Shown in pieces: positions 3,101 to 33,446 of a stretch of DNA of 64,000 nucleotides (within the stretch, counting starts at the first letter, position 1; each line of letters starts with the position of its first letter). The DNA is from an uncultured Candidatus Saccharibacteria bacterium (GTDB lineage Bacteria; Patescibacteriota; Minisyncoccia; Phycocordibacterales; WO2-35-19), in assembly GCA_964534305.1 (NCBI GenBank), contig CAZHPR010000001.1, positions 26,944 to 90,943 of the forward strand. Direction: 5' to 3'. The translations under genes and the position numbers were made by a program. The notes under the pieces are model-generated. The model searched no databases. It was not told the DNA's origin and saw nothing but the letters and a program-made list of their open reading frames with translations.

Positions 3101-3720
3101 ATCGCCCCCTCAACCAATCTTATTTTTATACCTTGAAAAAAATCTTTGATCTCTTTTTGAGTCTTCATTACTAAAGCCCTAAAAGCACGCGCGATATTGT
3201 CGTATGCTTTTATCTTTTCTTGCTCACTGAGATTTGTAAAATCCTCCCCTCTTATCAGCTCTATATTATTCCCAGTACTAGAAAAAACTCCTGCCAAATT
3301 TCTCACAGCACTAGCCAAACTAGTTGATTCTGGAGATACTGCGTTACTTAAGCTTACTACATCAAAACCCAATACAGGCTTTACTGGTCTCGGAACAGCA
3401 ACCTCACTTTGCTGAGTCCCACCAGGAATTTTGCTCTCTAGAGTTTCTGGTGCCTCTAAACCAATAGTATCTTGCGCTTGTTTAGCTTGTTTAGCTTGTT
3501 CTGCTCTTTCCAAAACTGTATTAGCCCACTTGCCTCTTTTGCTATGAGTTGTTTCTTTTTGATCAGGTACAACCTCGCCTTCATTCTCAGATATCCATTT
3601 CTTTTTATCACCAAGAGACCAGTTTTCAAAATTTTCTGGTCTTGAAGGTGTCTCATTACCATAGGTTTCTCCAAAATTAATCTCGCTAGTTGCCATGTTG
3701 AATTTAATTATAGAACACAA
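154..3720 (-). CDS. Giant hypothetical protein (1188 aa), acidic and coiled-coil rich, with internal repeats and two glycine-zipper-like hydrophobic segments
   Basis: Long uninterrupted ORF. Gly/Ala-rich hydrophobic stretches (AAGVAFAAPTGTLGAAVSAGGY...GAFVGSGFGMGL; GMAALAGGITSAVSGGLF) are flanked by Lys/Glu-rich coiled-coil-like sequence. No recognisable catalytic motif. Confidence 0.5.
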   Translation of the reverse strand: MCSIIKFNMATSEINFGETYGNETPSRPENFENWSLGDKKKWISENEGEVVPDQKETTHSKRGKWANTVLERAEQAKQAKQAQDTIGLEAPETLESKIPGGTQQSEVAVPRPVKPVLGFDVVSLSNAVSPESTSLASAVRNLAGVFSSTGNNIELIRGEDFTNLSEQEKIKAYDNIARAFRALVMKTQKEIKDFFQGIKIRLVEGAMNSAVYDESEKVLTIRADAEPTHIYQYVTDTVIPILKEEKLLVKNSTPQEKQDVVVEEGVSQEDPILDKPAVEPQAENMGELLGSTQLDQDREGLREPKNNGIEFGRVDLSNYDPKKSTEEYDLKVEIDGALQDLEENERRILKDSNFKIITKGEEVVFPVYMEEANTLDVGFLNTGEDILNAIRNTVLPYLKDKTAVEPQVESVEESPEATQLGNVEEVADNVEQAVQNPEKERILQELSSIRSELAEMDALTHNYSGKTGKSFFVLKDEYNSKKEELLKQIGAEIRGSEVYGPLTPEQEKLVKSKFDDELYKVLKSENDSYNASIKAARGENILDKAKESFRGLLGTKSMKWYAGLTRGQRFALNTTIFSLIAAGVAFAAPTGTLGAAVSAGGYRLARGIGAFVGSGFGMGLSNKILKPEQLQEWKTQEEQKIKDSEGSVEEKSKRIEELEKEFDRRLRNLNLKKIGMAALAGGITSAVSGGLFNSYYSGTGGGAAENLVKPKTAPSESTEVPKMRPVEAVKPEITENADSVDLQEMFGANYKEAMLQNVPKEGSLWGITREALLNNERFAALSVGQKNNVLAYYSNKILNSPEKFGFEADPKYGVKLEVGKPVDLSEAFDDKAEFEKVISRAERMSPELEAQEVQRATEIENSYKVTPEPSEIPKTLSSDIEDSPVSNKGIFSETERAAFMSGSLEKIDRISEKINQLRELGVDIDRIKVLEDKILELKNSVNYVKDNYTGPGGRVDVIDDVLGTSKKIDGLQSEVEKLIEEEIRNKTGSLQDNRAFPQREVLEDEIRNARGRLEQLERDSKIVEPSNRGIINPDTLRTMRGDTNNLIRNINNGGDLSSLDTAVERAFNNDIQRAYGSEGFLGLRKVIGANTKDWGLMKGLSANEVIKYFTDDSADTKLPPNVVSELAKSAKHKEFGDQLLGLIEMTDGNVKPYENENVADFTKRLGRFVMEKHSQGVSNIKSPMKMVA

Positions 3721-11739: not shown

Positions 11740-11779
11740 CCCTCCCCTGATCAAGGGGAGGGTTGGGTGGGGTTATTCC
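11740..11779. repeat. Palindromic element variant (solo copy) directly after the stop codon of the MBL ribonuclease gene
   Basis: CCCTCCCCTGATCAAGGGGAGGGTTGGGTGGGGTTATTCC. The hairpin loop resembles the 17609 element and the tail resembles the main family. Confidence 0.7.
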
Positions 11780-11788
11780 AAGATGGGG

Positions 11789-13237
11789 TTAATCCAAAAA
11801 GTATTCCTTACCGGGTTCGGGATAAATTGCTTCTATATCTAAGTACTCACGGATGCGTTGAGAGAGAAAGAGCGAAGAACGCGGTTCACCCATGATAGTA
11901 AAAACTTTTTTGAGAGAGTGTTGTTGTGTGGTTCCCCTCTCCTTTGCAAGGAGAGGGGTTAGGGGTGAGGTAGAACCTTCCGAAGCCTCCTCGACAAACT
12001 CCACCAAATTATCAGAATCTTTGTGTGAAGAGTAACCCTTTATTGTCTCTATCTTTGCTCTTACTTTTATTTTTTGACCATTTATCTTGACCTCACTCTT
12101 GCCGTCCTCAAGAGCCCGGCCCAAGCTACCCAGAGTTTGATACCCAACAAGGAGGAGGGTGTTTTTGTGATCGTCCAAAATATCAGCTTCATGAGCCAAA
12201 ACCCTCCCCCCTTCAGACATACCAGAGCCAGCAATTATTATCTTCGGGCCACCTTTTTTTATAACAGACTTACTTTCTTCAAAACCGTCTACAATATTGA
12301 GGCCAGGAAAATCAAATATGTTATCGCCCCTTTTTATCTCTTCTTGTACTTCCTTTTTAAAATCAGTTGCGTATTTTTTATAGATGTTTGTTACTTTTAT
12401 AGCCAGTGGAGAATCAAGATAGACAGGGACTTTCTCTATCTCCCCATCTTCTATCATGTTGTTTAGTTCGTACAGCATTACCTGAGTCCTTTCTATAGAA
12501 AAAGCTGGTATAACAATGGTTCCACCCCTCTTTATCCCCTCTTGGATCACCCCCTTAAACCTCTCTCTTCTTTCTTCTTTACTCTCATGATTTCTATCTC
12601 CATAAACACTCTCCATAACAATATAATTTGCTCCTTCTGGAATTTCTGTATCCGGTAATAATGGCGAAGGAGAATTGCCCAAATCTCCTGTAAAGGAAAT
12701 CTTGCGTACTTCATTCAAATCGAAAGATCCATAAGAAATATTTATTATGGCAGAACCGAGTATATGGCCAGCATTTTGCATATCTATCTTTATATCTTTA
12801 CCTAGGTTTATTGTTTGATTGTAATCGCAACCCTCCCACAAAGACATCGTTTTTTCTATATCCTTCTCTTCATAGAGATTTTTGTCGCGATGCCTAGACC
12901 TAAAAACTTTAAGAGCATCTAGGAGCATTGGCCTTGCAAGCTCCAGGGTTTCCTTTGTTGAAATTATTTTTCCACCAAAGCCCTCTCTCACAAGCTTTGG
13001 TATTTTGCCAATATGATCCATATGAGCATGAGTCACCAGTAGAAAATCAAAAGAAGACGGGTCGTATTTGAATGGCTCAAAGTTTTTTAGTTCATCATTG
13101 AAACTACCCTGGAGCAGACCACAATCAACCATAATCTTTGTACCAGCATAAAGAAATTCTATGTTTGCACCGGTTGCGGTCCCTACCCCACCCCAAAAAA
13201 TTAGTTTTGCATTTTTATCTTTATTTTGTTGACTCAT
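11789..13237 (-). CDS. MBL-fold beta-CASP ribonuclease (RNase J / CPSF-like) carrying a 15-aa in-frame repeat-element insertion
   Basis: HxHxDH motif (VTHAHMDHIG) and a beta-CASP-like central region. The C-terminal segment STSPLTPLLAKERGT is encoded by the element at 11931-11975. Confidence 0.7.
   Translation of the reverse strand: MSQQNKDKNAKLIFWGGVGTATGANIEFLYAGTKIMVDCGLLQGSFNDELKNFEPFKYDPSSFDFLLVTHAHMDHIGKIPKLVREGFGGKIISTKETLELARPMLLDALKVFRSRHRDKNLYEEKDIEKTMSLWEGCDYNQTINLGKDIKIDMQNAGHILGSAIINISYGSFDLNEVRKISFTGDLGNSPSPLLPDTEIPEGANYIVMESVYGDRNHESKEERRERFKGVIQEGIKRGGTIVIPAFSIERTQVMLYELNNMIEDGEIEKVPVYLDSPLAIKVTNIYKKYATDFKKEVQEEIKRGDNIFDFPGLNIVDGFEESKSVIKKGGPKIIIAGSGMSEGGRVLAHEADILDDHKNTLLLVGYQTLGSLGRALEDGKSEVKINGQKIKVRAKIETIKGYSSHKDSDNLVEFVEEASEGSTSPLTPLLAKERGTTQQHSLKKVFTIMGEPRSSLFLSQRIREYLDIEAIYPEPGKEYFLD
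11931..11975. repeat. G+C-rich palindromic element (solo copy) inserted in frame within the MBL ribonuclease gene
   Basis: GTTCCCCTCTCCTTTGCAAGGAGAGGGGTTAGGGGTGAGGTAGAA. Confidence 0.85.
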
Positions 13238-13664
13238 TTTGAGTTAAAATATTTTTGTCGTCGATGCCAATCTCTTTTATGTAAGCATACAGACAGGCTG
13301 ATATTGCACCTAGAGTATCCATAACAATATCTAGTGAGGTATCAAACGGATATTCCAAATCGTTTACATCTGTTGATCCTACAAGGAGTTCAAACATCTC
13401 CCACAAAACGCCAACAAATATAACCGACAAAATAGAAACAATTAAAAAATCTTTTAGCTTCCTGTTTTTGGGTTCAAAAAAACCTGAATAAAAATATAAC
13501 CAGAGGAAAAGCACAGCAACCCAAGCACCCCCAAGAAAGTGAACCAAGCTATCAAACTCACTCAGCGTCCAGTAAAGATAAAACTTTATTGCGAGCAGAT
13601 TTAGTACAGCAACAACAAACAACAAATAAAACAGTTCTCTAAAAAGTGGTTTTCTTATCATCAT
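13221..13664 (-). CDS. Small polytopic membrane protein (hypothetical)
   Basis: Four hydrophobic helices. Overlaps the 5' end of the MBL gene by 17 nt. Confidence 0.4.
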   Translation of the reverse strand: MMIRKPLFRELFYLLFVVAVLNLLAIKFYLYWTLSEFDSLVHFLGGAWVAVLFLWLYFYSGFFEPKNRKLKDFLIVSILSVIFVGVLWEMFELLVGSTDVNDLEYPFDTSLDIVMDTLGAISACLYAYIKEIGIDDKNILTQNESTK

Positions 13665-13702
13665 TTGATTTTAACATATAAAATTTTGCCAAACTCCCTA
13701 GA

Positions 13703-13734
13703 ATGCAAAAACCTGCAGGAGCAGGTTTTTGCAT
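13703..13734. other. Perfect 14-bp-arm palindrome (ATGCAAAAACCTGC agga GCAGGTTTTTGCAT), bidirectional terminator-like, not next to any gene end
   Basis: Seen directly in the sequence. Lies at the edge of a G+C-rich island. Confidence 0.5.
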
Positions 13735-13940
13735 TAGGACCGCCCGGCATATATTCCCTAATTGAAAAATATTAGGTGGGTGGCCTCGACCATAATTCTT
13801 CTGAACGAATTAACGCTCATCTTATTATGGAAAGTTAGCCTCCCTGAATATGTGCAACTTAGAAAAATATCCGAGTGATCCTCCCTCTATTATACCAAAC
13901 TTCATCATATTGCTTTTATTGACTAAATGTGTAATATGGT

Positions 13941-14570
13941 TTGCAGTTAGCTCTTATCACAATCAGCTTGAAAGGAGGCGGCATGTCCGTCCTAATGCAA
14001 CTCCTGGGCGGGGTATTCTACCTCCTCCAGAAAATATTTCTCTCAGTCGCTGAACGCACAGAGCGAGAAAATCCAACCAACAAGAAATGGCGGATCTGGT
14101 CTTGGGTCGTATACCTCATGGGACTACCGCCGTGGGTCATAATCTTCGTCTTGCACCGTAATTGGATAGCGGCTGCTTTGGAAGCTAGTGGCGCTCCCTC
14201 AATGATTTTAGGTCTTGTAGTGGCCATCCGCGGCAAGGGCAAGAAGCCAAAGTGGCTTGATTACATTTCGCTCGTTGCGATTTTCTTGGGACTCGGATAC
14301 AGTCTCTATGACTTCCGAGGTATCACCACTTGGAACCAGGTCCTTGAGATCGGTATTGTGGTTGGTTTCCTCGTTGGCACATACCAACTTGCTCATGAAA
14401 GACCAGACGGATATCTCTGGTACATCCTAATGTGCGGTTCAAATACTGCACTCATGCACGTCCAACACTATCCGTGGCTAGTTGCCCAACAGATAGTGTC
14501 CCTCGTCTTCATCTTCGATGCGTACTTTGCGCAACGCGCAAAGTCTCAACCCGAAACAAAAGAGGGTTAG
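13941..14570 (+). CDS. Trp-rich polytopic membrane protein in a G+C-rich island. A PnuC-like transporter is a weak possibility. Start is probably the internal Met at 13983
   Basis: Multiple TM helices. G+C is clearly above the flanking DNA. Confidence 0.35.
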   Translation: MQLALITISLKGGGMSVLMQLLGGVFYLLQKIFLSVAERTERENPTNKKWRIWSWVVYLMGLPPWVIIFVLHRNWIAAALEASGAPSMILGLVVAIRGKGKKPKWLDYISLVAIFLGLGYSLYDFRGITTWNQVLEIGIVVGFLVGTYQLAHERPDGYLWYILMCGSNTALMHVQHYPWLVAQQIVSLVFIFDAYFAQRAKSQPETKEG

Positions 14571-14595
14571 CCTCTTCCATATGTTCATCAACACA

Positions 14596-14640
14596 AAAGC
14601 CGCGCTGGCCACAAACCAGCGCGGCTCTTCATTTATTTTT
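14596..14640. terminator. Bidirectional rho-independent terminator between the 13941 gene and ndk
   Basis: AAAGCCGCGCTGGccacaaaCCAGCGCGGCT flanked by A-run and T-run. Confidence 0.75.
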
Positions 14641-14646
14641 AAAAAA

Positions 14647-15252
14647 TTATTCCAAGATTCCGTCGAGGTTTACATCATAAAGAATTTGCTCTTGTACCAG
14701 ACGATAATTAACAATCTCCTTTTCATCAAACCAGAGTTTTACCTCCTTTTCTGCGTCCTCTTTAGTACCAGAAGCGTGTATCAGGTTCCTTACCGACCTG
14801 CCATCAGTATCCGCCATTAAATACGAATCCAGCACAAAGTCACCCCTTATAGTACCAATATCCGAATTCCTCGGTTCTGTACCTCCTGTGATCTTGCGCA
14901 CTACATCCACTGCATGCGCTCCCTGCCAGACCATTGCGACAACCGGCCCGCTTGTCATATATTTTTTGAGTTTCTGCATTACTATCTTTGTTATCTCAAG
15001 CGGATCTCTTGATGGCGGTTCTTCTCCGGCTTCCAGAGCAGCCTTTATCCTCTTCTCACCTGTCTTCCTACCCCACTCTGGGTCAATGTTATAGTGTCTT
15101 TCAACAAAATCTTCAGTTGGTACAACCATCTTGATACCAACCATCTTAAGCCCTACCCTTTCATATCTTTTTATAATTTCTCCGATGAGAGTTCTCTGTA
15201 CCCCATCGGGTTTTATTACAATAAGTGTTTTTTCATTTTTTGGATGAGACAT
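14647..15252 (-). CDS. ndk: Nucleoside diphosphate kinase with a C-terminal extension
   Basis: NDK active-site region (…NLIHASG…) and N-terminal TLIVIKPDGVQR. Confidence 0.9.
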   Translation of the reverse strand: MSHPKNEKTLIVIKPDGVQRTLIGEIIKRYERVGLKMVGIKMVVPTEDFVERHYNIDPEWGRKTGEKRIKAALEAGEEPPSRDPLEITKIVMQKLKKYMTSGPVVAMVWQGAHAVDVVRKITGGTEPRNSDIGTIRGDFVLDSYLMADTDGRSVRNLIHASGTKEDAEKEVKLWFDEKEIVNYRLVQEQILYDVNLDGILE

Positions 15253-15296
15253 AGTTTAAAAGTTAAAAAGGCGCAAGTTGGAAAGTCTAATACAAA

Positions 15297-15641
15297 CTAC
15301 AAAGCACGTATAAACCCCGCTAGCATTTTTGATATATCCACCGATAATAGATACATTCTATCGTAATCTACCTTAGAAATATAACCCAACTCAAGTCCTA
15401 ATTGCAACATAGAACGTACTTCACCACACGATCCTTTGGAAATGTATAGAAACCTGGACAGTTCTTTATTACCCTTTCTTTCAAATCCCTCTGCAATATT
15501 ATTCATCACGGAAACAGCAGCTCTCTGTATTTGGTCTCTAAAACCATAATCCTTACTACTAGAAAAAATCTTATACGTAATGACACTCAATTCTTTTGCT
15601 TTCTGCCAAGCTTTTATTTCTTCAAAAGATTTGATCGTCAT
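15297..15641 (-). CDS. Four-helix-bundle protein (23S rRNA intervening-sequence protein family)
   Basis: Characteristic …NIAEGF.R…EL.RFL.IS.GSC.E… signature. Confidence 0.8.
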   Translation of the reverse strand: MTIKSFEEIKAWQKAKELSVITYKIFSSSKDYGFRDQIQRAAVSVMNNIAEGFERKGNKELSRFLYISKGSCGEVRSMLQLGLELGYISKVDYDRMYLLSVDISKMLAGFIRAL

Positions 15642-15657
15642 ACAATTTTATAGTTTT

Positions 15658-16362
15658 CTAATCTTCATTTCTCACCGCAATAAATACTTTTGGTTCTGTA
15701 TCTATGATTGCATCTCGGATTTCTGGAAACTTATCACCTCTCTGAATCTTTTCTGATAATTCAACGATATCTCCATCGTAGGGATAAACAAATGCATCAC
15801 AAGAAAAATCACCCATGGGCACACGAGTTGTTTGTTCTGGAAGTTCCTCAATTATGTAATCAGCGAGTCTAAAAATCTCACTTTCCGAAAATGTTCTCGG
15901 ACTAGTTTCTTTTGTGATTGCTTTCTTAACAATTGATTGTAGGTAACTCTTAAATTCCTCATTTTTATGGTAGAAATCATATAAGAATTTGACCTTTAAT
16001 TTGAAAGTGTTATTGGCAATTACACTCCATTTAACATAATGGATTCTGGATATTTCCTCTGGAGAAAAAGTCTTCTCAACTTCTTGCCTAACTTGTTCTA
16101 GCAAATCTGTTCCTAACTGCTCGGCCATTTGTAAGGCTTTCTCATATTTAATTCTTTTTCTGACCTCAAGGTTTATTGCATGAATAGAATCTGCAACATA
16201 CACAATTACGTTTTCACGAGTATACAAAAGAGACCACCGAATTAACTCTATTATATTTTCTACTGTAAACCATTTATTACCAAGACTAATACCGACACCG
16301 ATGTTGTATTTCTTGGCTTCTAAATCTTCTACTGTTCCTCCTCTAATTTTATACAGCTGCAT
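15658..16362 (-). CDS. Candidate tRNA-dependent cyclodipeptide synthase (CDPS, AlbC-like)
   Basis: Size is about 234 aa. Motifs line up with the AlbC family: IGVGISLGNKWFT matches IGISAGNSYFS, VIVYVADSIHA matches VVYVDTHID, DYIIEELP matches NYVLAEAP (catalytic Tyr/Glu), and VYPY matches CYH. This comparison is from memory of the family, not a database search. Confidence 0.5.
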   Translation of the reverse strand: MQLYKIRGGTVEDLEAKKYNIGVGISLGNKWFTVENIIELIRWSLLYTRENVIVYVADSIHAINLEVRKRIKYEKALQMAEQLGTDLLEQVRQEVEKTFSPEEISRIHYVKWSVIANNTFKLKVKFLYDFYHKNEEFKSYLQSIVKKAITKETSPRTFSESEIFRLADYIIEELPEQTTRVPMGDFSCDAFVYPYDGDIVELSEKIQRGDKFPEIRDAIIDTEPKVFIAVRNED

Positions 16363-16373
16363 ACATCCACGTA

Positions 16374-17150
16374 CTATTTAGTCAAAATTATTATTTTCCC
16401 ATCATAACCGACGGCGACGGTGTGCTCGAAGTGAGCAGAGAGAGATTTGTCTGCCGTTCGATAGGTATAACCATCAGAGAGCTTTTTTATTTCACGGCTG
16501 CCGAGAGAAAACATCGGCTCGATCGCAATCACAAGCCCCGGACGAAGCTCTGGTCCTTCTCCTCTCTTGGCCCGATTAGGAACAAAAGGTTCTTCATGCA
16601 CACTGTAGCCGACCCCGTGGCCCGAGAGACCTTCTACAACCCCAAAACCATGCCTTATCGCAACTTCCATAACAGCAGCTCCAATATCACCTATATGTCC
16701 CCCGACTCTCATCGCCGCAATCCCTTTGTTTAAAGCTTCTTTGGTTGCACTCACAAGCTCCTCTGATTTTTTATCAACCCTGCCGACAGGCACAGTAATT
16801 GCCGCATCTGTTATAAGGCCCTTGTAAGTAAGGCCGAGATCAAGGGTCACAATATCTCCTTCAAAAAGGATCTTGCCCCCTCCCTCGTTTGGTATCCCGT
16901 GTACAATCTCTTCATTGATGGAGACACAAAGAGAAGCTGGATAAGGTCTCTTTGCATCCATTGGTTGATAACCAAAAAATGATGCGACTCCCCCAGCCTC
17001 GTCTATGAGCTTTTCGGCGTAAGCATTTAGTTCATCTGTTTTGACACCAGGGAACACCTTCTTTGCAACCTCACGCAAAATACGAGCATGGATCGCTCCA
17101 CCCTCTTTCATAATTTCTATTTCTTCTTCTGTTTTGTATCTGATACCCAT
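16374..17150 (-). CDS. map: Methionine aminopeptidase type I
   Basis: MetAP metal-ligand motifs (…HGIPN…, …FEHTVAV…). Confidence 0.9.
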   Translation of the reverse strand: MGIRYKTEEEIEIMKEGGAIHARILREVAKKVFPGVKTDELNAYAEKLIDEAGGVASFFGYQPMDAKRPYPASLCVSINEEIVHGIPNEGGGKILFEGDIVTLDLGLTYKGLITDAAITVPVGRVDKKSEELVSATKEALNKGIAAMRVGGHIGDIGAAVMEVAIRHGFGVVEGLSGHGVGYSVHEEPFVPNRAKRGEGPELRPGLVIAIEPMFSLGSREIKKLSDGYTYRTADKSLSAHFEHTVAVGYDGKIIILTK

Positions 17151-17199
17151 TGGGCTAAATATAGCATTATTATTTTATTTATAAACCCCCTCCGGCTTA

Positions 17200-17635
17200 A
17201 AGCCACCTCCCCCTTAATCAGGGGGAGGAAACACCCCACCCATCACAAATTATTTCTTATTTTTAAAATTACTTCCTCCACCCCATTATCAATCTCTTTA
17301 TTCCAAAACCTTAAAGTCTTATACCCCAAGTCTTCCATAAACAACTGTCTTACCCTGTCATACTCTTTATTTTGATTGTGAATTTCTCCGTCAATTTCGA
17401 TAACTAATTTTTTCTCTGGACAAAAGAAATCAACTACATAACCTCCAATACTATGCTGTCTCCTAAATTTCACCCCCAACTGACTACGTCTCAAATACCA
17501 CCAAATTTTATTCTCTTGCGGAGTTGGGTTTCTTCTAAGTTCCTTTCTATGCTCCCGGAGGCTGTATAGATTATGCAACTTCTTCATAACGATAAGTAGC
17601 AGTTTTTTCTTTCCCCTGATTAAGGGGAAAGTGGC
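17200..17635. mobile_element. Small cassette of one DUF559 endonuclease gene flanked by about 30-bp inverted repeats, inserted between adk and map
   Basis: Left arm AAGCCACCTCCCCCTTAATCAGGGGGAGGAAA (17200-17231). Right arm TTTCTTTCCCCTGATTAAGGGGAAAGTGGCC (17605-17635) is its imperfect reverse complement. Confidence 0.55.
17243..17587 (-). CDS. DUF559 (Vsr-like, PD-(D/E)xK) endonuclease-domain protein
   Basis: …ENKIWWYLRRSQLGVKFRRQHSIGGYVVDFFCPEKKLVIEIDG…LRFWN… The ORF-track start at 17638 reads through the right inverted repeat. The Met at 17587 is the more likely start. Confidence 0.8.
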   Translation of the reverse strand: MKKLHNLYSLREHRKELRRNPTPQENKIWWYLRRSQLGVKFRRQHSIGGYVVDFFCPEKKLVIEIDGEIHNQNKEYDRVRQLFMEDLGYKTLRFWNKEIDNGVEEVILKIRNNL

Positions 17636-17652
17636 CAAAGGCCGATAGGGGT

Positions 17653-18243
17653 TTACAGGTTTATTTTTTCTAATATCTCCCTATGCACATCTTCTATTGG
17701 TTGTTCACCATTTATTTCTACAAATTTGTAGTAAGGATTTGATTTAAAATGTTCTAGCGCAGGCTTTACACTCTTTTCGTACCATTCCATTCTTCTTTTT
17801 ATCTCTTCTGATTTATCATCCACCCTCCCCCTCTCCTCAAGCCTTTCAGTTGCCCATTCTGGGGAAACAAGAATTGAGATTATAGTAGGATTCTCTCTCT
17901 TATAAAACTGGAGCGCCGTATCCAAGATCCAAGCCTCATGCACCTTCCTTGATATACCATCTATTACCAAATGCTCACTCCCCGTCATATTATCAACAAA
18001 GAATTGTGACCAAAGCCATATCGGAAGAAATTCTGGCATAAGCCCGCCCGAATCAATAACCTCCTTGGTTTTCTTTGCAGAAAAAGAATCCTGTTTTGCA
18101 AATTCTCGTAGTTTGCCTCCAGTTTCTAGGTACAAAACTTTCTTTTCTGGATCAACTTGCTCTAACTTTTCTATAAGCAATTTTGCCTGTGTACCCTTAC
18201 CAGAACCAGAAGGACCAAAAAATATAAATGTTTGAGGATTCAT
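17653..18243 (-). CDS. adk: Adenylate kinase
   Basis: P-loop GPSGSGKGTQ. Confidence 0.9.
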   Translation of the reverse strand: MNPQTFIFFGPSGSGKGTQAKLLIEKLEQVDPEKKVLYLETGGKLREFAKQDSFSAKKTKEVIDSGGLMPEFLPIWLWSQFFVDNMTGSEHLVIDGISRKVHEAWILDTALQFYKRENPTIISILVSPEWATERLEERGRVDDKSEEIKRRMEWYEKSVKPALEHFKSNPYYKFVEINGEQPIEDVHREILEKINL

Positions 18244-18338
18244 AATTTTAGATTTAAGATTTATAAAGTAAGAATAATAGGAAAGGTAGTTGATAGCAAG
18301 CCCAGAATTTTCTTAAATCTAGATTCTTGAATCTGCCC

Positions 18339-19610
18339 CTAGTATTCCCTAGCAGAAATCTGAGCGTCCAATTTTTTGAGTAGATCAATGACGACTGAAA
18401 CAACGATCAAGAGACCAGTTCCACCGATGGCCACAGCGTTAATACCGGTGAGCGCTTGTATCACAAGCGGCAAGACAGCAATAAGTCCCAAGAAGAGCGC
18501 CCCGATAAGAGTCAGTCTAAAAAGTATTTTAGCAATATGAGAAGACGTAGAAGGCCCTGGTCTTACACCGGGTATAAAGGCACCACTTCTTTGCAAATTC
18601 TTCGATATAGAATCTGGATCAAATGTAACAGCCGTATAGAAATAAGTGAATACAAACACCAACAGGAAGTAAGCTATCGCATAAAATAGCTGATCAGAAA
18701 GGAAAGACAGTATAGATGAAGAGACCTTTTGTATCAGAGCGTTACTAGAGTTTGCCAAGAATCTTACAATCATTTGTGGGAAAAGTAGGATAGAAAGAGC
18801 AAAGATTATCGGCATCACACCAGCCTGATTTACACGTAGTGGCAAGTATGTTGATACTCCACCATAAACCTTGTTACCCCTTACCTGCTTTGCATAGGTA
18901 ACTGGTATCGGCCTCTCTGCCTCTGTTATAACAACCACACCCCAGATAACCAAAACCGCAGCCGCAATAAATCCAAGATAAGAAGGGAGCATCGAGACAT
19001 CAAACGAAAGGAGTAGCCTACTAACAGCAGACGGTAGCGCAGAGACTATACCAGCAAATATGATGAGCGAAACACCGTTACCGATACCAAACTCAGTTAT
19101 AAGCTCTCCAAGCCACATAAGAAGAAGTGAACCGGCTGATATTACTATTAGGTTTGTAGCAAGTTCAAAAGTAGAAAGTCTTGCAAGTATTCCCTGGTTC
19201 TGAAGAAGGACTATAAAGCTGAAGCCCTGTATCAGAGCAAGTGGTACGGTGAGCAATCTTGAGTACTGAGTAAACTTCCTTCTACCAACCTCCCCGTCTT
19301 CTTGATACATCTCTTTTAGTCTTGGGAACATAACGGTAAGCAGCTGCATTATGATTGAAGCAGTAATATAAGGAGAAACACCGAGCATTATTATGGAAAG
19401 ATTTGATAAGCCACCTCCAGAAAATATGTTTAGCAGACCGAAGAAATCATTACCAGATATAAACTGTTCTAGACGGATTGGATCAATGCCTGGTATAGGT
19501 ATAACAGCCATAACACGAAAGATAGCAAGAACAACCAGAGTAAAGATTATTCTGTTTCTCAAAACACTATCCCCCCAAACGAGCTTTATTTTGTGAAAGA
19601 AAGAATTCAT
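18339..19610 (-). CDS. secY: Preprotein translocase subunit SecY
   Basis: Ten TM helices, SecY signature, and position after rplO. Confidence 0.9.
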   Translation of the reverse strand: MNSFFHKIKLVWGDSVLRNRIIFTLVVLAIFRVMAVIPIPGIDPIRLEQFISGNDFFGLLNIFSGGGLSNLSIIMLGVSPYITASIIMQLLTVMFPRLKEMYQEDGEVGRRKFTQYSRLLTVPLALIQGFSFIVLLQNQGILARLSTFELATNLIVISAGSLLLMWLGELITEFGIGNGVSLIIFAGIVSALPSAVSRLLLSFDVSMLPSYLGFIAAAVLVIWGVVVITEAERPIPVTYAKQVRGNKVYGGVSTYLPLRVNQAGVMPIIFALSILLFPQMIVRFLANSSNALIQKVSSSILSFLSDQLFYAIAYFLLVFVFTYFYTAVTFDPDSISKNLQRSGAFIPGVRPGPSTSSHIAKILFRLTLIGALFLGLIAVLPLVIQALTGINAVAIGGTGLLIVVSVVIDLLKKLDAQISAREY

Positions 19611-19626
19611 TTATTTTTTAAGAGTA

Positions 19627-20067
19627 CTACTCTATATTACCACCTAGGGCAATTATTGCCTTGCTTGCACCCTCAGAAACCAAAACGCCTTTTATAGTAA
19701 GCTTCTTTTTAAGCTCACCACTTGCAAGTATTTTTATAGTAGGGTTCTTGCCACTCACTGTAGTTATAAGACCTTTTTCAGTTAGAGTCTTTGGAGAAAC
19801 AACATCACCCGCCGAAAAATTCTTCTCCAAGAGAGAAAGGTTTATAGCGACATTGTCCTTCTGTATAGATTTTAGAGAATTCTTACCTCTACCTCTTAGC
19901 TTTGGTATTCGCTTTATGATATCTCTGAGTTCTGGTCTCTTTTTTCTTCCGCTTCTTGCGTTTTGTCCCTTTGTCCCTCTACCAGAAGTTTTGCCCTTAA
20001 CACCGCCGCGACCGACTCTCATCTTTTTCTTATTTGCTTTATTCTTTTTTAGATTATTTAACTGCAT
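19627..20067 (-). CDS. rplO: 50S ribosomal protein L15
   Basis: …RVGRGGVKGKTSGRG… signature. Confidence 0.9.
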   Translation of the reverse strand: MQLNNLKKNKANKKKMRVGRGGVKGKTSGRGTKGQNARSGRKKRPELRDIIKRIPKLRGRGKNSLKSIQKDNVAINLSLLEKNFSAGDVVSPKTLTEKGLITTVSGKNPTIKILASGELKKKLTIKGVLVSEGASKAIIALGGNIE

Positions 20068-20076
20068 ATTTTTGTT

Positions 20077-20682
20077 TTATGCTCTTATCTTTGCAAGCGC
20101 TTTTATTGTTGCTCTTGCTATGTTTAGCTTGTTTTTTGATCTAGAAAGTATCTTGGTTGATACCTCTTTCACCCCAGCAAGCTCCAAGACTGTCCTCACA
20201 GAACTTCCAGCAACAACTCCTTTACCTGGAGCTGGCATTATAACAACACTTGAGCTTGAGTACTTTGCTTCCACCTGATGAGGTATAGAAGATTTTTTGT
20301 TTAGGTTTATTTGGACCATGTTCTTCTTTGCATCCCTAACCGCTTTTTCTACTGCGATTGGAGTGTCTCCTGCCTTGCCAAGACCAACTCCGACCCGACC
20401 CTTTCTGTCTCCCACCACGATAGCCGCACTAAAGCTAAACCTTCTTCCTCCTGATACCACTCTGGTCACTCTCCTGATGCTTATAAGTTTGTTGTCAAAC
20501 TCCTGTCTTACTTTTTCTGGTCTCCTAGATGGCTTTCTCTCATTCTTTCTCTTTTCAAATCTTTTTTTGCCAGAAACAGCTGTGTTTTCTGAAACATTTT
20601 CTTCAGATACAGAATCAACAACCGGAGATTCATCGATTACTCCTTCATCAACTTTTATTTCTTTTTCGTTTAGATCTGACAT
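20077..20682 (-). CDS. rpsE: 30S ribosomal protein S5 with an acidic N-terminal extension of about 60 aa
   Basis: …RVTRVVSGGRRFSF… S5 core. Only 9 bp separate it from rplO, leaving no room for an rpmD (L30) gene. Confidence 0.9.
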   Translation of the reverse strand: MSDLNEKEIKVDEGVIDESPVVDSVSEENVSENTAVSGKKRFEKRKNERKPSRRPEKVRQEFDNKLISIRRVTRVVSGGRRFSFSAAIVVGDRKGRVGVGLGKAGDTPIAVEKAVRDAKKNMVQINLNKKSSIPHQVEAKYSSSSVVIMPAPGKGVVAGSSVRTVLELAGVKEVSTKILSRSKNKLNIARATIKALAKIRA

Positions 20683-22753: not shown

Positions 22754-22843
22754 GGAGACGTGGCTGAGCTGGTCGAAAGCGCCTCACTGCTAACGAGGTA
22801 GGCCCTTTAAAAGGTCTCGAGGGTTCGAATCCCTCCGTCTCCG
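22754..22843 (+). tRNA. tRNA-Ser (anticodon GCU), class II with a long variable arm
   Basis: Manual fold: acceptor GGAGACG/CGTCTCC, anticodon loop CTGCTAA, long variable arm, T-loop GGTTCGAATCC. No encoded CCA. Confidence 0.8.
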
Positions 22844-23026
22844 CAGGAGCCAAAAAGCTAAGAGCTTTTTGGAGGAGCAAGTGCTTTGAATAGCACTTGC
22901 GTGGGGATTCGAAGACCTTTTGAGACTAAAATTGATTTTAAGAAAATTTTAGCCAAAAGGTGTACTGAAACTGTAAGTTTCGAAATTCCTTACACCTTAC
23001 CCAAATTAGTTTGCTATAATAGCCAT

Positions 23027-23311
23027 ATGAAATCAATAATAGGAAGTAAATATTTTGCGCTAGTTGTTGTTGCAATCGTTTTTGTAGCTGGAGCATTTTT
23101 GTACATAAACAACCCCGATCCAGTAGAATATGAGGGTGAAGAAGAGATTGTCTGTACTCAGGATGTGCTCCTATGTCCTGACGGATCTTATGTCGGGAGA
23201 GAAGGTAAAGACTGCCAGTTCAAAGCCTGCCCTCCCCCTCCGGAAGGTACACAGTTTGAAGACGGCACCATAGAGAGTGGAGATAATAATATTTCTATTC
23301 CTGAAAATTAA
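23027..23311 (+). CDS. Small secreted Cys- and Pro-containing protein (hypothetical). Start is probably the internal Met with a signal-like segment
   Basis: MKSIIGSKYFALVVVAIVFVAGAFL followed by Cys-rich acidic sequence. Confidence 0.3.
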   Translation: MKSIIGSKYFALVVVAIVFVAGAFLYINNPDPVEYEGEEEIVCTQDVLLCPDGSYVGREGKDCQFKACPPPPEGTQFEDGTIESGDNNISIPEN

Positions 23312-23696
23312 TTTCAAAAGGATACATCCCCATACTACAAGTCCCTTTGAGGACAGAGACTTTTGGGATACCCAAATCTATTTCTACAACACCAGTGGGT
23401 GGGAGGCTTTGGCTAATATCCATCTTTGGTATCCTAACAGAAGAAGAACAGTCAAAGGTGTTCTTGGTTTCCATCTTTAATATGGTAGGAATGCCAGCCT
23501 TGGCATAAGTTTTTCTAGGACTAAACCCTCCTTTTGCTTTTATTTCTATAATTTGTTTACCTTGATCAACAAAAACGTTTTGAACAGGCTCATTATATTC
23601 CGATGTTTTGTTATTTGGATCACCCCCAGAACTTAAAATAAAATACGCAAGCAAAGAAAACACAGAAAGCATTATAATTAGAGTAGATATTTTCAT
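23295..23696 (-). CDS. Cupredoxin-like secreted protein, probably copper binding
   Basis: Signal peptide and a C…C.MGM motif (GTCSMGMY). It sits next to a copper ATPase module. Confidence 0.45.
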   Translation of the reverse strand: MKISTLIIMLSVFSLLAYFILSSGGDPNNKTSEYNEPVQNVFVDQGKQIIEIKAKGGFSPRKTYAKAGIPTILKMETKNTFDCSSSVRIPKMDISQSLPPTGVVEIDLGIPKVSVLKGTCSMGMYPFEINFQE

Positions 23697-23717
23697 CTTG
23701 GTATTATAATAATTTGA

Positions 23718-24749
23718 TTAAAAATTAAAAACTGGAGGCAAGAGATCTATAACGACCAGACTATTTATTATATTGAATATAGAAAACAAGATAACAATAA
23801 TCCCAGCGGTCTTGAAAAACACTCCTTTCTTTGAATTGTTTTTTATACTAAAAGAACTAAAGCTTACAAGAGCCAGTATCGGTAAAGTACCCAGAGCAAA
23901 AATAAGCATAGTGAGGCCCCCCTTTAAGAAACTCGCGGTGGTTAGGGTGTAAAATTGCATTGACTGAGTAAAACCGCAGGGCAAGAAGAATGTGGCAATA
24001 CCTAAGATTATAGGAGTCACAGAGTGATTATAATTTGAAATATTGTGCGCATATTTACCTACTGATTTTGGGATAGATAATTGTAGTTTTTTTGCCCAAG
24101 GAAATACCTCAAGAAGATTTATACCGAGAATAAGCATAACTAACCCGACCAATAAGCTGAGTAAAAATGTTGCAAACGGAGAAAGTGTAAAGGCTGAACC
24201 AAGCATACCAATAACCCCACCGAGAAAAAAGAAAGAGACAATTCTACCTATATGGAACATCAACTGTGGTTTTAGGCTGTTTTGTTCTTTTGCAAATGTT
24301 GCTGACACAGAAAGCAGAAGTCCGCCCACAACAGCCATACAAGAAGATAGTGAAGCGACAATACCGATAGCAAATACCGTGCCATAACCAACGTTAGAAG
24401 CATCTACAAAATTTACAATACCCACCTTTTGAAGAAAAATAAAAAGGAAAGCAAAAAGAAGTGCAAACGGAACTGCCAACTTAAACTCTGACCAATTTGC
24501 CTTTTTGAGCTCCTTTTCTACGGATAATTTATAACCATAACCCTCTATAAGAGCAGAGAGTTTTTCTGCAACACTAGATGGCGAGAGGTTACCAAAATCT
24601 CCAGAAACTTCGAGCGTATTTGAGGAAAGATTTGCTTCAGCCCGATTTACAGCCGGAGACTCCTTTGTTTTACTTTCTATAAGTACTACACAAGAAGCAC
24701 AGTGCATCCCATGAACATGAAATATATATTTTTTATTTTTTTCTTGCAT
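23718..24749 (-). CDS. HMA-domain (MxCxxC) protein fused to a polytopic membrane domain (DsbD_2/TauE-like); putative heavy-metal transporter
   Basis: N-terminal GMHCASCVVLIE heavy-metal-associated motif, about 8 TM helices, conserved Cys in the membrane part. Confidence 0.55.
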   Translation of the reverse strand: MQEKNKKYIFHVHGMHCASCVVLIESKTKESPAVNRAEANLSSNTLEVSGDFGNLSPSSVAEKLSALIEGYGYKLSVEKELKKANWSEFKLAVPFALLFAFLFIFLQKVGIVNFVDASNVGYGTVFAIGIVASLSSCMAVVGGLLLSVSATFAKEQNSLKPQLMFHIGRIVSFFFLGGVIGMLGSAFTLSPFATFLLSLLVGLVMLILGINLLEVFPWAKKLQLSIPKSVGKYAHNISNYNHSVTPIILGIATFFLPCGFTQSMQFYTLTTASFLKGGLTMLIFALGTLPILALVSFSSFSIKNNSKKGVFFKTAGIIVILFSIFNIINSLVVIDLLPPVFNF

Positions 24750-24755
24750 ATAATT

Positions 24756-27071
24756 TTAATTTAATTTTTTTGTTTTTATTCTAAGAGAATTGACCACCAC
24801 AGAAACACTTGAAAGAGCCATCGCAAACCCAGCAAATACAGGACTAAGCAACCAACCAAAGATCGGATAGAACACTCCCGCCGCAAGAGGGATCCCTACA
24901 ATATTGTAGATAAAGGCCCAAAAAAGATTTTGTTTTATACCCCGCATCGTTATCTTTGAAAGTTTTATTGATTTTACCAACTTTGATATATCGCCATGCA
25001 AAAGAGTTATCCCTGCTGACTCTATTGCAACATCAGTACCAGTGCCCATAGCAATTCCGATATCAGCCTGAGCCAGGGCCGGTGCATCGTTTACTCCATC
25101 CCCTGCCATGGCAACTATCCTACCCTCAGATTGAAGCTCTTTTATTTTTGATAATTTATCTTGAGGCAAAACGTTTGCAACAACCTGATCAATACCGACA
25201 CTTGAAGCGATATACTCCGCCGTCTTCTTATCATCTCCGGTAAGCATAACCACCTTTATTCCAATTTTGTGGAGATCCTTTATTGCGTCTTTTGATTCTG
25301 GTTTGACCTTGTCTGCAACCATCACAAAACCCAATAATTTCTCTTTGGTAGCAAACAAAACTGGAGTCTTACCTTGCTCTGTAAAAGCTTCCAGATCTGG
25401 TAAGTCAAGGTTTGTGAGTAAACTCTTTACAAACCTGACACTACCAACATAATAATCAACGCCTTCAATATTCGCCTTGACACCCTTTCCTTCAATATTC
25501 TCAAAATTAGATACTTCTTTTACTTCTAAACAAGTCTCTCCTGCATAGTTTACAATTGCATTAGCAATTGGATGTTCTGATTTTTTCTCAATAGAAGCAA
25601 TCAATGATACGAATTTATCATCTTCCAAATCAGATAAATTTTTTGTATCAACAACAACCGGCTTTCCCAAAGTGATTGTCCCTGTTTTATCAACAACAAC
25701 AGTATCAACTTTATGAAGCTTTTGGAGTGTAGTGGCATCTTTGATCAGAATACCCTCCCTAGCTCCCTTACCCACCCCGACAATTATGGCAGTTGGTGTC
25801 GCAAGACCAAGCGCACAAGGACAAGCAATAACAAGGACACTAACAAAAGAAACAACTCCGAAAGAAAAGGCTTGTGAAAAACCAAGATATTGTGTGCCCA
25901 ACAAAATCCAAACCGCCAAAGAAAGAGTAGCGATAACCAACACAGTAGGTACAAAAACGCTAGATATCTTGTCTGCAAGGGCCTGAATCGGTGCCCTACT
26001 ACCCTGGGCATTTTCTACCATCGTTATTATCTGAGAAAGAAGAGTTTCTTTTCCTATCTTTGTTGCTTTAAAAATAAAATGGCCATTAGTATTTAGCGTG
26101 CCGGAGACAACACTGTCTCCAACATTTTTTTCTATTGGTATTGGCTCTCCTGTAACCATTGATTCGTCAACAAAAGAATGGCCCTCCACAATATTTCCAT
26201 CAACTGGTATCTTTGCTCCTGGCTTTACTACGATACTATCACCAAGAATTACTTCGTTTATAGAAACTTCTTTTTCTTGGCCATCACGGACAACAATAGC
26301 GGTTTTTGCTTGAAGATTTAGGAGTTTTTCTATAGCATCTCCAGTTTTTAACTTTGATCTAGCTTCAAGATATTTTCCGAGAGTTATAAAAGTTATAACC
26401 ACAATTGTTATGTCATAATAAGTATATTCAACGTTTAAAAAAGGCCTCAAAGTTTCTTCAAAAGCTGAGACGACAAAACTGTAAACATAAGCTGTTAGTG
26501 TTCCTATGCCAATTAAAGTGTCCATATTCGCCTTGCCATAACGCAAAAAACGGTAAATACCAACAAGATATGGTTTACCGACTACAAAAAGAATATAGGT
26601 AGCTATAACCGGCAATAGATGATGAAAAAATTCACTTAAGACATCCCCCATCATTGGAACAAGTTCGTATTTTGATAGAATCTCCCAAAACATTATAAAA
26701 ACAGCAATAATACTTAGAAAAACTGAGGAAAAAACTTTGGATCTCATTTCTTCTATCTCTTTAATTTTTTCTGCCTTTGATTGGTTTAGTCCGAGGTGTT
26801 TTGCATGCTCTTCTTCGCTCATACCTGCCTGTGCAGACAGGCCCATATCTTCGGCACTCTGCCCATAAAGAGAATAGCCCAGCGGCTCTATTTTTTTAGA
26901 GAGTTGCAAGAGATCTACTTTTTTGTGATCAAAAGAAATTTTTGCACTTTCTGTCGCATAATTAACCTCAGCCGAATTTACACCAGAAGTTTTTTTGAGA
27001 GTATCTTCTATTATGCTTGCACAAGAAGCGCAGTGCATACCTTTTACTTTATAAGTTTTTTGGTTATCCAT
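24756..27071 (-). CDS. copA: Copper-translocating P1B-type ATPase
   Basis: N-terminal HMA domain ([12 protein letters not shown]), CPC motif in TM6 ([11 protein letters not shown]), DKTGTIT phosphorylation site, [10 protein letters not shown]. Confidence 0.9.
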
Positions 27072-29755: not shown

Positions 29756-29830
29756 ACCGCCCTTAGCTCAGTTGGTTAGAGCACAGAGCTTATACCTCTG
29801 GGGTCCTAGGTTCGAATCCTAGAGGGCGGA
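29756..29830 (+). tRNA. tRNA with anticodon UAU (tRNA-Ile2-type, AUA-reading)
   Basis: Manual fold: acceptor CCGCCCT/AGGGCGG, D-arm GCTC…GAGC, anticodon stem CAGAG/CTCTG with loop CTTATAC, T-arm CTAGG-TTCGAAT-CCTAG. No encoded CCA. Confidence 0.7.
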
Positions 29831-29870
29831 CAAGCGTTAGAAAAAACTCAAATACTTGTGACGACAAACA

Positions 29871-32955: not shown

Positions 32956-33373
32956 GGGGATGATCGGCCTAGACAATAAGAATATCTTTATAAATGCCAA
33001 AGAGAGCTGTGGTGACTCTTAAATCCGCCATAAATGATAACTGCAAACAAGGTTGTCACAAAAGCTAAGTCCGTTGCTTCTCCATACTTTGGGGTCAACG
33101 ATTTCGCTTTCGCTTACGTTAGAGCTTAATTAAGTTTCTTTCCTAAGCGACGCTATCCTTCTTATGTCTCATACGGAAGATCATGGTGTAATAAATTGAG
33201 GCTCTGGAAAATAGTTCTCCCCTATTTTCCGAAATGTTGGGAGATCGAAACTTTAGAATTTCGTCTGTTTGTATCTAGAGTTTTTAAATGGGCCTAGCCC
33301 AAAAAGCAGTCTATCTCTGGTAGAAATTTATAAAATACCTTATTGCATGCGCGTTCGATTCGCGCCATCTCCA
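32956..33373 (+). ncRNA. ssrA: tmRNA (SsrA)
   Basis: 5' GGGGAUGAUCGG… pairs with 3' …CAUCUCC-A. tRNA-like T-arm GCGCGTTCGATTCGCGC. Lies immediately downstream of smpB. Candidate tag frame ends in …FAFAYVRA-TAA. Confidence 0.7.
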
Positions 33374-33446
33374 CAAAATTAACGAGCGAACAAGGTGAGC
33401 GACTATAATTTTGTAGGACCCTGAGTTTATCGAAGGGTTTTTAATT

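Follow-up and report, generated by a model that had tools for sequence, protein, structure and literature searches.

The 64-kb window analysed here (the whole stretch of contig CAZHPR010000001.1 under study) carries on its minus strand an open reading frame at 15658 to 16362 that raises the question of whether an ultra-small episymbiotic bacterium encodes a working tRNA-dependent cyclodipeptide synthase (CDPS), and if so which amino acids this enzyme joins and whether it has partners. The original prediction, made from the letters of the sequence alone, had proposed a CDPS of 234 amino acids next to map and ndk. An open reading frame of this length was found exactly as claimed, with an ATG start, and sequence and structure-model comparisons indicate that its product is a genuine CDPS of the clade of ParcuCDPS. 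Taken as a whole, the reading that our analysis favours, and that we hold to be highly probable, is of an active CDPS of the XYP subfamily, encoded as a stand-alone gene, supplied with the cell's own aminoacyl-tRNAs and predicted to form cyclo(His-X). Enzymes of just this type have already been described, assayed and crystallised from Parcubacteria, and the gene is a further member of this group; the main value of the result lies in closing a question, and specialists would not be surprised by it.

15658 to 16362, minus strand: CDPS gene, 234 amino acids, ATG start, XYP subfamily, ParcuCDPS-like clade (open reading frame, profiles, PDB match and AlphaFold2 model)

Two family profiles recognised the protein above their cut-offs, with 36.2 bits for Pfam PF16715 (CDPS; gathering score 27) and 54.2 bits for NCBIfam TIGR04539 (tRNA-dependent cyclodipeptide synthase; cut-off 45). 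A phmmer search of the PDB aligned residues 1-231 with ParcuCDPS (E = 3e-64), and it matched seven entries of this enzyme, 7QB8 for the wild type plus six point mutants, over the full length at E~1e-64, agreement well outside what chance would produce. The wild-type enzyme shares 46% identity and 70% positives with the protein, with a single two-residue gap. An AlphaFold2 model computed from an alignment of 120 family sequences attained a mean predicted local distance difference test score (pLDDT) of 96.6 and a predicted template modelling score (pTM) of 0.92. When this model was used to search the PDB with Foldseek, the top seven matches were the ParcuCDPS entries, with template modelling (TM) scores of 0.83-0.86 relative to the query and 0.90-0.91 relative to the target, 7QB8 being the best (0.86/0.91). 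The best 50 matches were CDPSs throughout, including AlbC, YvmC and Rv2275, with E values down to 1e-23, consistent with the Rossmann fold resembling that of class-Ic aminoacyl-tRNA synthetases. The checks by profile search and by structure prediction, proposed along with the original prediction, came out in favour of a CDPS.

The residues expected to carry catalysis were located by alignment. The numbering of the protein corresponds one to one with that of ParcuCDPS up to residue 151 and runs two ahead of it thereafter, conservation counts refer to an alignment of 121 family sequences, and P1 and P2 denote the pockets for the side chains of the first and second aminoacyl-tRNA substrates.

16267 to 16293, minus strand: residues 24-32, GISLGNKWF, with P1 residue G24, nucleophile S26 (AlbC S37), N29 (AlbC position 40, the 'X' of XYP) and the invariant W31 (alignment)
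16189 to 16206, minus strand: residues 53-58, IVYVAD, with the His-selecting P1 residue Y55, P1 residue A57 and D58, which would form a Ser/Asp dyad with S26 (alignment and ParcuCDPS mutagenesis)
15910 to 15933, minus strand: residues 144-151, a helix with P2 residues I144, K147, A148 and K151 (ParcuCDPS F144, E147, W148 and K151; P2 motif of CDPS 90, which is ParcuCDPS, mapped on the alignment)
15832 to 15858, minus strand: residues 169-177, YIIEELPEQ, with catalytic Y169 and E173 (AlbC Y178 and E182) and P1 residues E176 (ParcuCDPS E174) and Q177 (ParcuCDPS L175) (alignment)
15769 to 15792, minus strand: residues 191-198, FVYPYDGD, with P1 residue F191 (ParcuCDPS Y189), catalytic Y193 and P194 (the Y and P of XYP) and P2 residues Y195, G197 and D198 (ParcuCDPS Y193, T195 and R196) (alignment)

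S26, W31, D58, Y169, E173 and P194 are invariant (121/121), and near-invariance is seen for N29 (117/121), Y55 (119/121), E176 (116/121) and Y193 (119/121). In the alignment, S26, D58, Y169, E173 and Y193 correspond to S26, D58, Y167, E171 and Y191 of ParcuCDPS and, by way of S26, Y167, E171 and Y191, equivalents of Ser37, Tyr178, Glu182 and Tyr202 of AlbC are all present, in agreement with the proposed Ser/Tyr/Glu catalytic set. Mutagenesis of ParcuCDPS has shown that S26, D58, Y167 and E171 are required, with Y191 being the equivalent of AlbC Y202, that activity is lost in D58A and D58N, Asp58 and the catalytic S26 together making up a Ser/Asp dyad, and that Y55 is the main contact to His (Sutherland et al., 2022, PMC7613923). 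The aspartate at this dyad position, a trait of the ParcuCDPS-like clade, is kept in the protein studied here.

The three motifs on which the original prediction was built fared unequally. The first, G[IV]SxGNx[WY]F, is present as GISLGNKWF at residues 24-32 and occurs once among the 309 stop-free segments of at least 60 amino acids in the window, and YxxxExP is present as YIIEELP at residues 169-175. The middle motif, V[IV]YV[AD][DT], does not fit as it was written, the sequence being IVYVAD, and matches (residues 53-58) once its first position is relaxed to [IV]. We assign the protein to the XYP subfamily because it carries Tyr-Pro at AlbC positions 202-203; Y193-P194 together with N29 at AlbC position 40 separates it from the NYH subfamily of AlbC, which has His at position 203. 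The comparison of the two subfamilies that had been suggested is thereby decided for XYP.

ParcuCDPS, or CDPS 90, comes from Parcubacteria bacterium RAAC4_OD1_1 and was characterised in 2018 as an XYP enzyme that in E. coli yields cyclo(His-Pro) (44%) and cyclo(His-Glu) (56%) (Gondry et al., PMC5816076). It was subsequently crystallised and engineered (wild type, 7QB8; Y189F, 7QAW; Sutherland et al., 2022, PMC7613923). The two proteins agree in length class (230 residues, versus 234 here), in collinear alignment, fold, catalytic set and XYP signature, in the P1 core of Y55, W112 and E174 (ParcuCDPS numbering), and in their host at the level of the phylum (Parcubacteria, in the candidate phyla radiation (CPR)). 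The ParcuCDPS clade is distinguished by a shifted beta3 strand that puts D58 beside the catalytic Ser, and by a glycine-kinked alpha3/alpha4 helix (PMC7613923); D58 and G84, which represent these features, are conserved in the protein. The other solved XYP enzymes (Nbra-CDPS 5MLQ, Rgry-CDPS 5MLP, Fdum-CDPS 5OCD and CglO-CDPS 6Y4B) share the Rossmann-type fold, the Ser/Tyr/Glu/Tyr set and the Pro following the second catalytic Tyr, whereas their identity to the protein is 13-19% and their TM score 0.5-0.7. AlbC of Streptomyces noursei (3OQV/4Q24) is alike in family, mechanism and catalytic residues (S37/S26, Y178/Y169, E182/E173 and Y202/Y193), but is more distant (18% identity, TM 0.62, a weak direct sequence match at E 0.025), has His rather than Pro after Y202, and shares its biosynthetic gene cluster with a cyclodipeptide oxidase, in contrast to the stand-alone gene described here.

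The differences from ParcuCDPS lie in the substrate pockets. For CDPS 90, the P1 motif GAYAWELY accommodates His and the P2 motif FEWKYTR accommodates Pro or Glu (PMC5816076, Table 2), the positions being 22, 24, 55, 57, 112, 174, 175 and 189 of ParcuCDPS for P1, and 144, 147, 148, 151, 193, 195 and 196 for P2. The protein from the window has GGYAWEQF in P1, identical at five of eight positions, and IKAKYGD in P2, identical at two of seven, so that the Pro/Glu motif is absent. Across the family, the P1 motif is conserved as GGYAWE-x-[Y/F] and P2 is variable. In ParcuCDPS, E174A and E174H abolish the use of His (PMC7613923). The two selectors with the largest effect on His selection, Y55 and E176 (ParcuCDPS E174), are kept here, and the third, Y189, is represented by F191. 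Among the 121 sequences, this last position holds Tyr in 77, Phe in 32 and Leu in five, and the 14 sequences of the close clade (at least 68% identity) have Phe there without exception. Phe at 191 tends to accompany Gln at 177: Phe is found in 18 of the 22 Gln-bearing sequences, and Gln in not one of the 77 with Tyr (raw counts, shared ancestry included), a coupling which suggests that a polar group has been relocated within the P1 pocket. By analogy with ParcuCDPS, the likely product is thus predicted to be cyclo(His-X), His being called with moderate confidence and X left without a confident assignment.

Several points weigh against this reading. The sole characterised relative, ParcuCDPS, is only 46% identical, and P1 departs from it at three of eight positions (A24G, L175Q and Y189F). 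Every single P1 mutant of that enzyme, Y189F included, had reduced cyclo(His-Pro) output (PMC7613923), and these observations together make the use of His likely, not certain. P2 retains just two of seven positions and has Asp in place of Arg at ParcuCDPS position 196. Pocket motifs predict the products of XYP enzymes in about 73% of cases, versus 91% for NYH enzymes (Gondry et al., PMC5816076), the Q177/F191 statistic is uncorrected for shared ancestry, and the co-transcription with map and ndk proposed below is read only from short gaps and from the lack of promoter or terminator signals above chance.

The protein might instead be the functional equivalent of ParcuCDPS and release the same cyclo(His-Pro) and cyclo(His-Glu), a rather unlikely outcome that nonetheless has arguments on its side: ParcuCDPS is the closest characterised enzyme, the P1 core of Y55, W112 and E176 is kept, the P2 pockets of CDPSs are shallow and promiscuous, so that different P2 motifs can take the same residue (PMC7613923), and no P2 motif common to Pro-using enzymes was seen by Gondry et al. 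(PMC5816076). The P2 pocket itself argues the other way, with its two shared positions of seven and a reversal of charge in which R196 and K194 of ParcuCDPS are replaced by D198 and D196; the positive charge in P2 of ParcuCDPS has been linked by its authors to the acceptance of Glu (PMC7613923). Moreover, ParcuCDPS is itself an outlier at these positions, having T195 and R196 where the family consensus is Gly at 195 and Glu or Asp at 196. Because the P2 pocket differs, the identity of X in the cyclo(His-X) that we favour is not transferable from ParcuCDPS.

An active CDPS whose P1 specificity has moved off His, for instance to Gln, Asn, Phe or Leu, by way of Y189F, L175Q and A24G is similarly improbable. 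Three of the eight P1 positions do differ, ParcuCDPS variants with a more hydrophobic P1 (combinations of Y55V, E174L and Y189L) were switched to Leu or Phe, and Y189F alone lowered the output of cyclo(His-Pro) (PMC7613923). That switch, however, needed the loss of E174 and/or Y55, not of Y189 by itself (PMC7613923), and Y55 and E176, which matter most for selecting His, are conserved here. In addition, F191 comes with a polar Gln at the adjacent P1 position, so that the pocket stays polar. Under the favoured prediction of a His-incorporating enzyme, the natural combination of a Y189F/L175Q-type P1 with a distinct P2 offers a cheap and well-defined target with which to widen the short list of His-incorporating CDPSs, which are of interest to biocatalysis groups.

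The course of the reaction can be proposed from what is established for the CDPS family. The first aminoacyl-tRNA, most likely His-tRNA(His), would place its side chain in P1 (G22, G24, Y55, A57, W112, E176, Q177 and F191), and D58 would activate S26 to take over its aminoacyl group. The next aminoacyl-tRNA, whose side chain would occupy P2 (I144, K147, A148, K151, Y195, G197 and D198), would then give a dipeptidyl-enzyme, from which Y169, E173 and Y193 are expected to assist cyclisation and release of the 2,5-diketopiperazine. Conceivable roles for this product include those of a signal, an antimicrobial and a metal ligand.

The gene occupies a co-oriented run of housekeeping genes, whose minus-strand order is S8-L6-L18-S5-L15-SecY-Adk-DUF559-Map-CDPS-4HB-NDK (4HB, four-helix bundle), followed by a hairpin. 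Its immediate surroundings, measured in nucleotides (nt), are as follows; map, the four-helix-bundle protein and ndk had all been named as neighbours in the original prediction, and profile matches bear out each of them.

16374 to 17150, minus strand: map (methionine aminopeptidase), upstream of the CDPS gene with an 11-nt gap (Peptidase_M24, E 5e-44)
15297 to 15641, minus strand: four-helix-bundle protein (23S rRNA intervening-sequence protein, IVP, family), 16 nt downstream of the CDPS gene (PF05635, E 9e-33; TIGR02436, E 5e-31)
14647 to 15252, minus strand: ndk, the last gene of the co-oriented run (PF00334, E 1e-39)
14598 to 14626, no strand assigned: perfect 11-bp GC-rich hairpin (nine GC pairs), a terminator-like site between the convergent ndk and a membrane-protein gene at 13941-14570

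Because the gaps along this run measure only 11, 16 and 44 nt, the CDPS gene is probably co-transcribed with map and ndk. A scan of 14400-20200 for promoters and terminators returned site counts equal to chance, and the hairpin at 14598-14626, the only strong terminator-like structure in that interval, likely marks the end of the transcription unit. Since the CDPS gene sits 11 nt behind map in an array of ribosomal-protein, secY, adk, map and ndk genes, it is probably also expressed along with housekeeping functions.

No tailoring gene (cyclodipeptide oxidase, P450, 2OG oxygenase, methyltransferase acting as such, or prenyltransferase) is adjacent to the CDPS gene or lies within about 10 kb on either side, a span taken up by housekeeping genes, the four-helix-bundle protein, DUF559, a membrane protein and an RsmE-type rRNA methyltransferase; the absence of adjacent tailoring enzymes that had been reported thus extends over this distance. 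We also surveyed 71 further metagenome loci bearing family members, collecting the open reading frames within 5 kb on either side and clustering 347 neighbour proteins from 42 non-redundant loci. No neighbour family, and hence no conserved tailoring or partner gene, occurred in more than five of the 42. The recurrent neighbours were P-type ATPases (five loci) and map, adk, secY and ndk (three to four loci, through shared synteny). Class-I S-adenosylmethionine (SAM)-dependent methyltransferases and GNAT proteins were only sporadic neighbours. At most loci, a same-strand gene lies within a few tens of bases upstream of the CDPS gene. By this survey, the gene is a stand-alone one that has no conserved partner across the family.

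Comparison of gene orders indicates, in addition, that the placement behind map is a lineage-specific insertion. The locus of one relative (L010, CDPS 77% identical) shares the array, reading SecY-Adk-Map-CDPS-SET-x-NDK-DUF2238-betaCASP-RNaseY-ClpP, and has the same map-CDPS junction. A Zambryskibacteria-like contig with a SecY 80% identical to that of the window reads SecY-Adk-Map-NDK-DUF2238-betaCASP, without a CDPS gene, and a Zambryskibacteria CDPS (57% identical) has another location, flanked by genes for a P-type ATPase and a SAM methyltransferase. In other relatives, some of them 77-81% identical, the gene follows rpoC, a Ham1-type NTPase or pheT, or lies beside a GNAT gene or a CsoR-CopA cassette. 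The guanine-plus-cytosine (GC) content of the CDPS gene is 34.3% (28% at third codon positions), versus 46.6% for map and 42.6% for ndk, and the CDPS, four-helix-bundle and DUF559 genes are all AT-rich (34-36% GC). Such low values fit accessory insertions, although housekeeping genes are often richer in GC anyway. In L010, the slot of the four-helix-bundle gene holds a SET-domain gene, which marks the former as an accessory gene that varies between loci and not as a conserved partner. In a check for a link to defence systems, PADLOC returned no match for the CDPS or the four-helix-bundle protein and only weak nuclease-domain matches for DUF559. As the four-helix-bundle gene is Avd-like, a link to diversity-generating retroelements was considered; no template/variable repeat pair was found in 12000-20000, and no search was aimed at a reverse transcriptase.

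The SET-domain gene of L010 has counterparts elsewhere. At four of the 25 loci with a same-strand downstream neighbour (L010:6702-7091, L033:5814-6308, L037:8506-8970 and L050:654-1169), the CDPS gene is followed on its own strand, after 1-14 nt, by a gene of this kind (PF00856, confirmed with Pfam), that of L010 being of a divergent type. The CDPSs of these four loci are 46-53% identical to each other and their flanking genes are unrelated, and because divergent CDPSs with unrelated flanks share a SET gene, the arrangement suggests a gene pair conserved in part of the family. A search of the six-frame translation of the window with the SET profile detected no SET gene. The literature that we searched contained no paper on a CDPS-SET pair, and none relevant to CDPS biology or to the physiology of cyclodipeptides in CPR bacteria.

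A copper cassette (23295-27071, minus strand), on the same strand as the CDPS gene and some 7 kb away from it, comprises a CopA P-type ATPase with an HMA domain, an HMA+DsbD_2 membrane protein and a cupredoxin-like protein. At L012:6768-10771, this cassette stands right next to a CDPS gene, with a CsoR-type repressor ahead of it, and five of the 28 longer family loci have a P-type ATPase no more than 5 kb from the CDPS gene. This proximity may be due to chance; as a matter of speculation, His-diketopiperazines could serve as metal ligands, a copper-handling role being brought to mind by the CopA cassettes that neighbour CDPS genes. One may imagine a mobile stand-alone CDPS gene that repeatedly lands behind housekeeping genes and makes a His-diketopiperazine with a second residue unseen in characterised CDPSs, with the SET-domain methyltransferase as a new class of partner or tailoring enzyme in a subset of lineages, or with a function in copper handling. 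We consider this combined scenario decidedly doubtful. If true, the SET-partner or copper reading would be the first case of a natural product with a physiological role in ultra-small episymbionts, and the family-wide survey, with its picture of a stand-alone gene in variable positions and with an occasional SET partner, is a starting point for cyclodipeptide physiology in CPR bacteria.

Between adk and map lies the DUF559 gene (Vsr-like endonuclease domain; 17243-17638, minus strand). It is bracketed by imperfect 50-nt inverted repeats, 78% complementary, at 17182-17231 and 17606-17655, the palindromic core of which, CCCCTGATTAAGGGG, occurs three times in the window (versus 0.08 expected), including a copy at 11744-11758. 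Neither L010 nor L015 has the gene where adk meets map, and it therefore resembles a small insertion or mobile element.

Returning to the CDPS itself, a further reading is very improbable, namely that the protein is a relic without activity, or that it has the CDPS fold yet does something else, for example hydrolysing aminoacyl-tRNAs or passing the aminoacyl group to a different acceptor. Decay does seem to take place in some lineages: at L076:8001-8195, L077:960-1154, L062:8001-8312 and L003:6001-6504, only the first 65-170 residues are matched (47-68% identity), and these copies seem to have been truncated or frameshifted. Inactivity in E. coli was also seen in many XYP CDPSs of metagenomic origin, an outcome that Gondry et al. 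(PMC5816076) ascribed to tRNA mismatch or wrong start codons. Against a relic stand the intact, full-length reading frame with a start aligned to those of its homologues (M1 at least 90% conserved), the presence of all catalytic residues, invariant or nearly so in the family, and the highly confident model with its CDPS fold. Our analysis therefore retains the view that the protein is probably active as an enzyme.

The source of the substrates was the subject of a further claim in the original prediction, which had envisaged host-derived aminoacyl-tRNAs. CPR bacteria are thought to be host-dependent for many metabolites, a general background that speaks for the idea, which has no support in the sequence and is scarcely credible given that the window encodes ribosomal proteins, EF-G, SecY, tRNA-Ser, tRNA-Ile and a transfer-messenger RNA (tmRNA), that phenylalanyl-tRNA synthetase and a ThrRS-like synthetase are encoded beside the CDPS gene in the genomes of relatives, and that the protein lacks signal peptide-like features at its N terminus, opening directly with the conserved beta-strand MQLYKIRGG. 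Because the window and the relatives carry their own translation system, the aminoacyl-tRNAs used would be those of the cell itself, and a host could contribute the amino acids at most.

The expectation that a CDPS would be unusual in a reduced genome did not hold either. The closest relative comes from Parcubacteria and was described in 2018 and crystallised in 2022, and a word-indexed search recovered at least 254 clusters at 90% identity (among 500 candidates), nearly all with lengths of 229-234 amino acids. Every source name given in this set was either tRNA-dependent cyclodipeptide synthase or one of Parcubacteria, Zambryskibacteria and Patescibacteria. An exhaustive profile search of 1.84 billion representatives yielded 652 clusters at E<=1e-3, 247 at <=1e-10 and 85 at <=1e-30. 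Because the family is not rare in Patescibacteria, the premise of rarity fails, and by these sequence counts a CDPS in a reduced genome is neither unusual nor new.

The SecY of the window is about 80% identical to that of metagenome-assembled genomes labelled Candidatus Zambryskibacteria, 'Parcubacteria group' and 'Patescibacteria group', which would place the window among Zambryskibacteria-like Parcubacteria; no rRNA was found in its 64 kb. The other genes identified are of ordinary bacterial housekeeping or CPR-typical kinds and encode NusA, trigger factor, RNase Y, FtsH, PNPase, EF-G, RecG, RecJ, ComEC, the F protein of type II secretion systems and type IV pili, and phosphoglycerate kinase. 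Four large open reading frames on the minus strand have no Pfam match at E<=1e-5 (154-3720, 1188 amino acids; 56985-58460, 491; 35016-36152, 378; and 38862-39800, 312), as is typical of CPR genomes. The RNA genes comprise the tmRNA gene (32956-33376), tRNA-Ser(GCT) (22754-22844) and, on the plus strand at 29757-29831, a tRNA-Ile with the anticodon TAT (UAU). In most bacteria, AUA is read by a tRNA with the anticodon CAU modified to contain lysidine.

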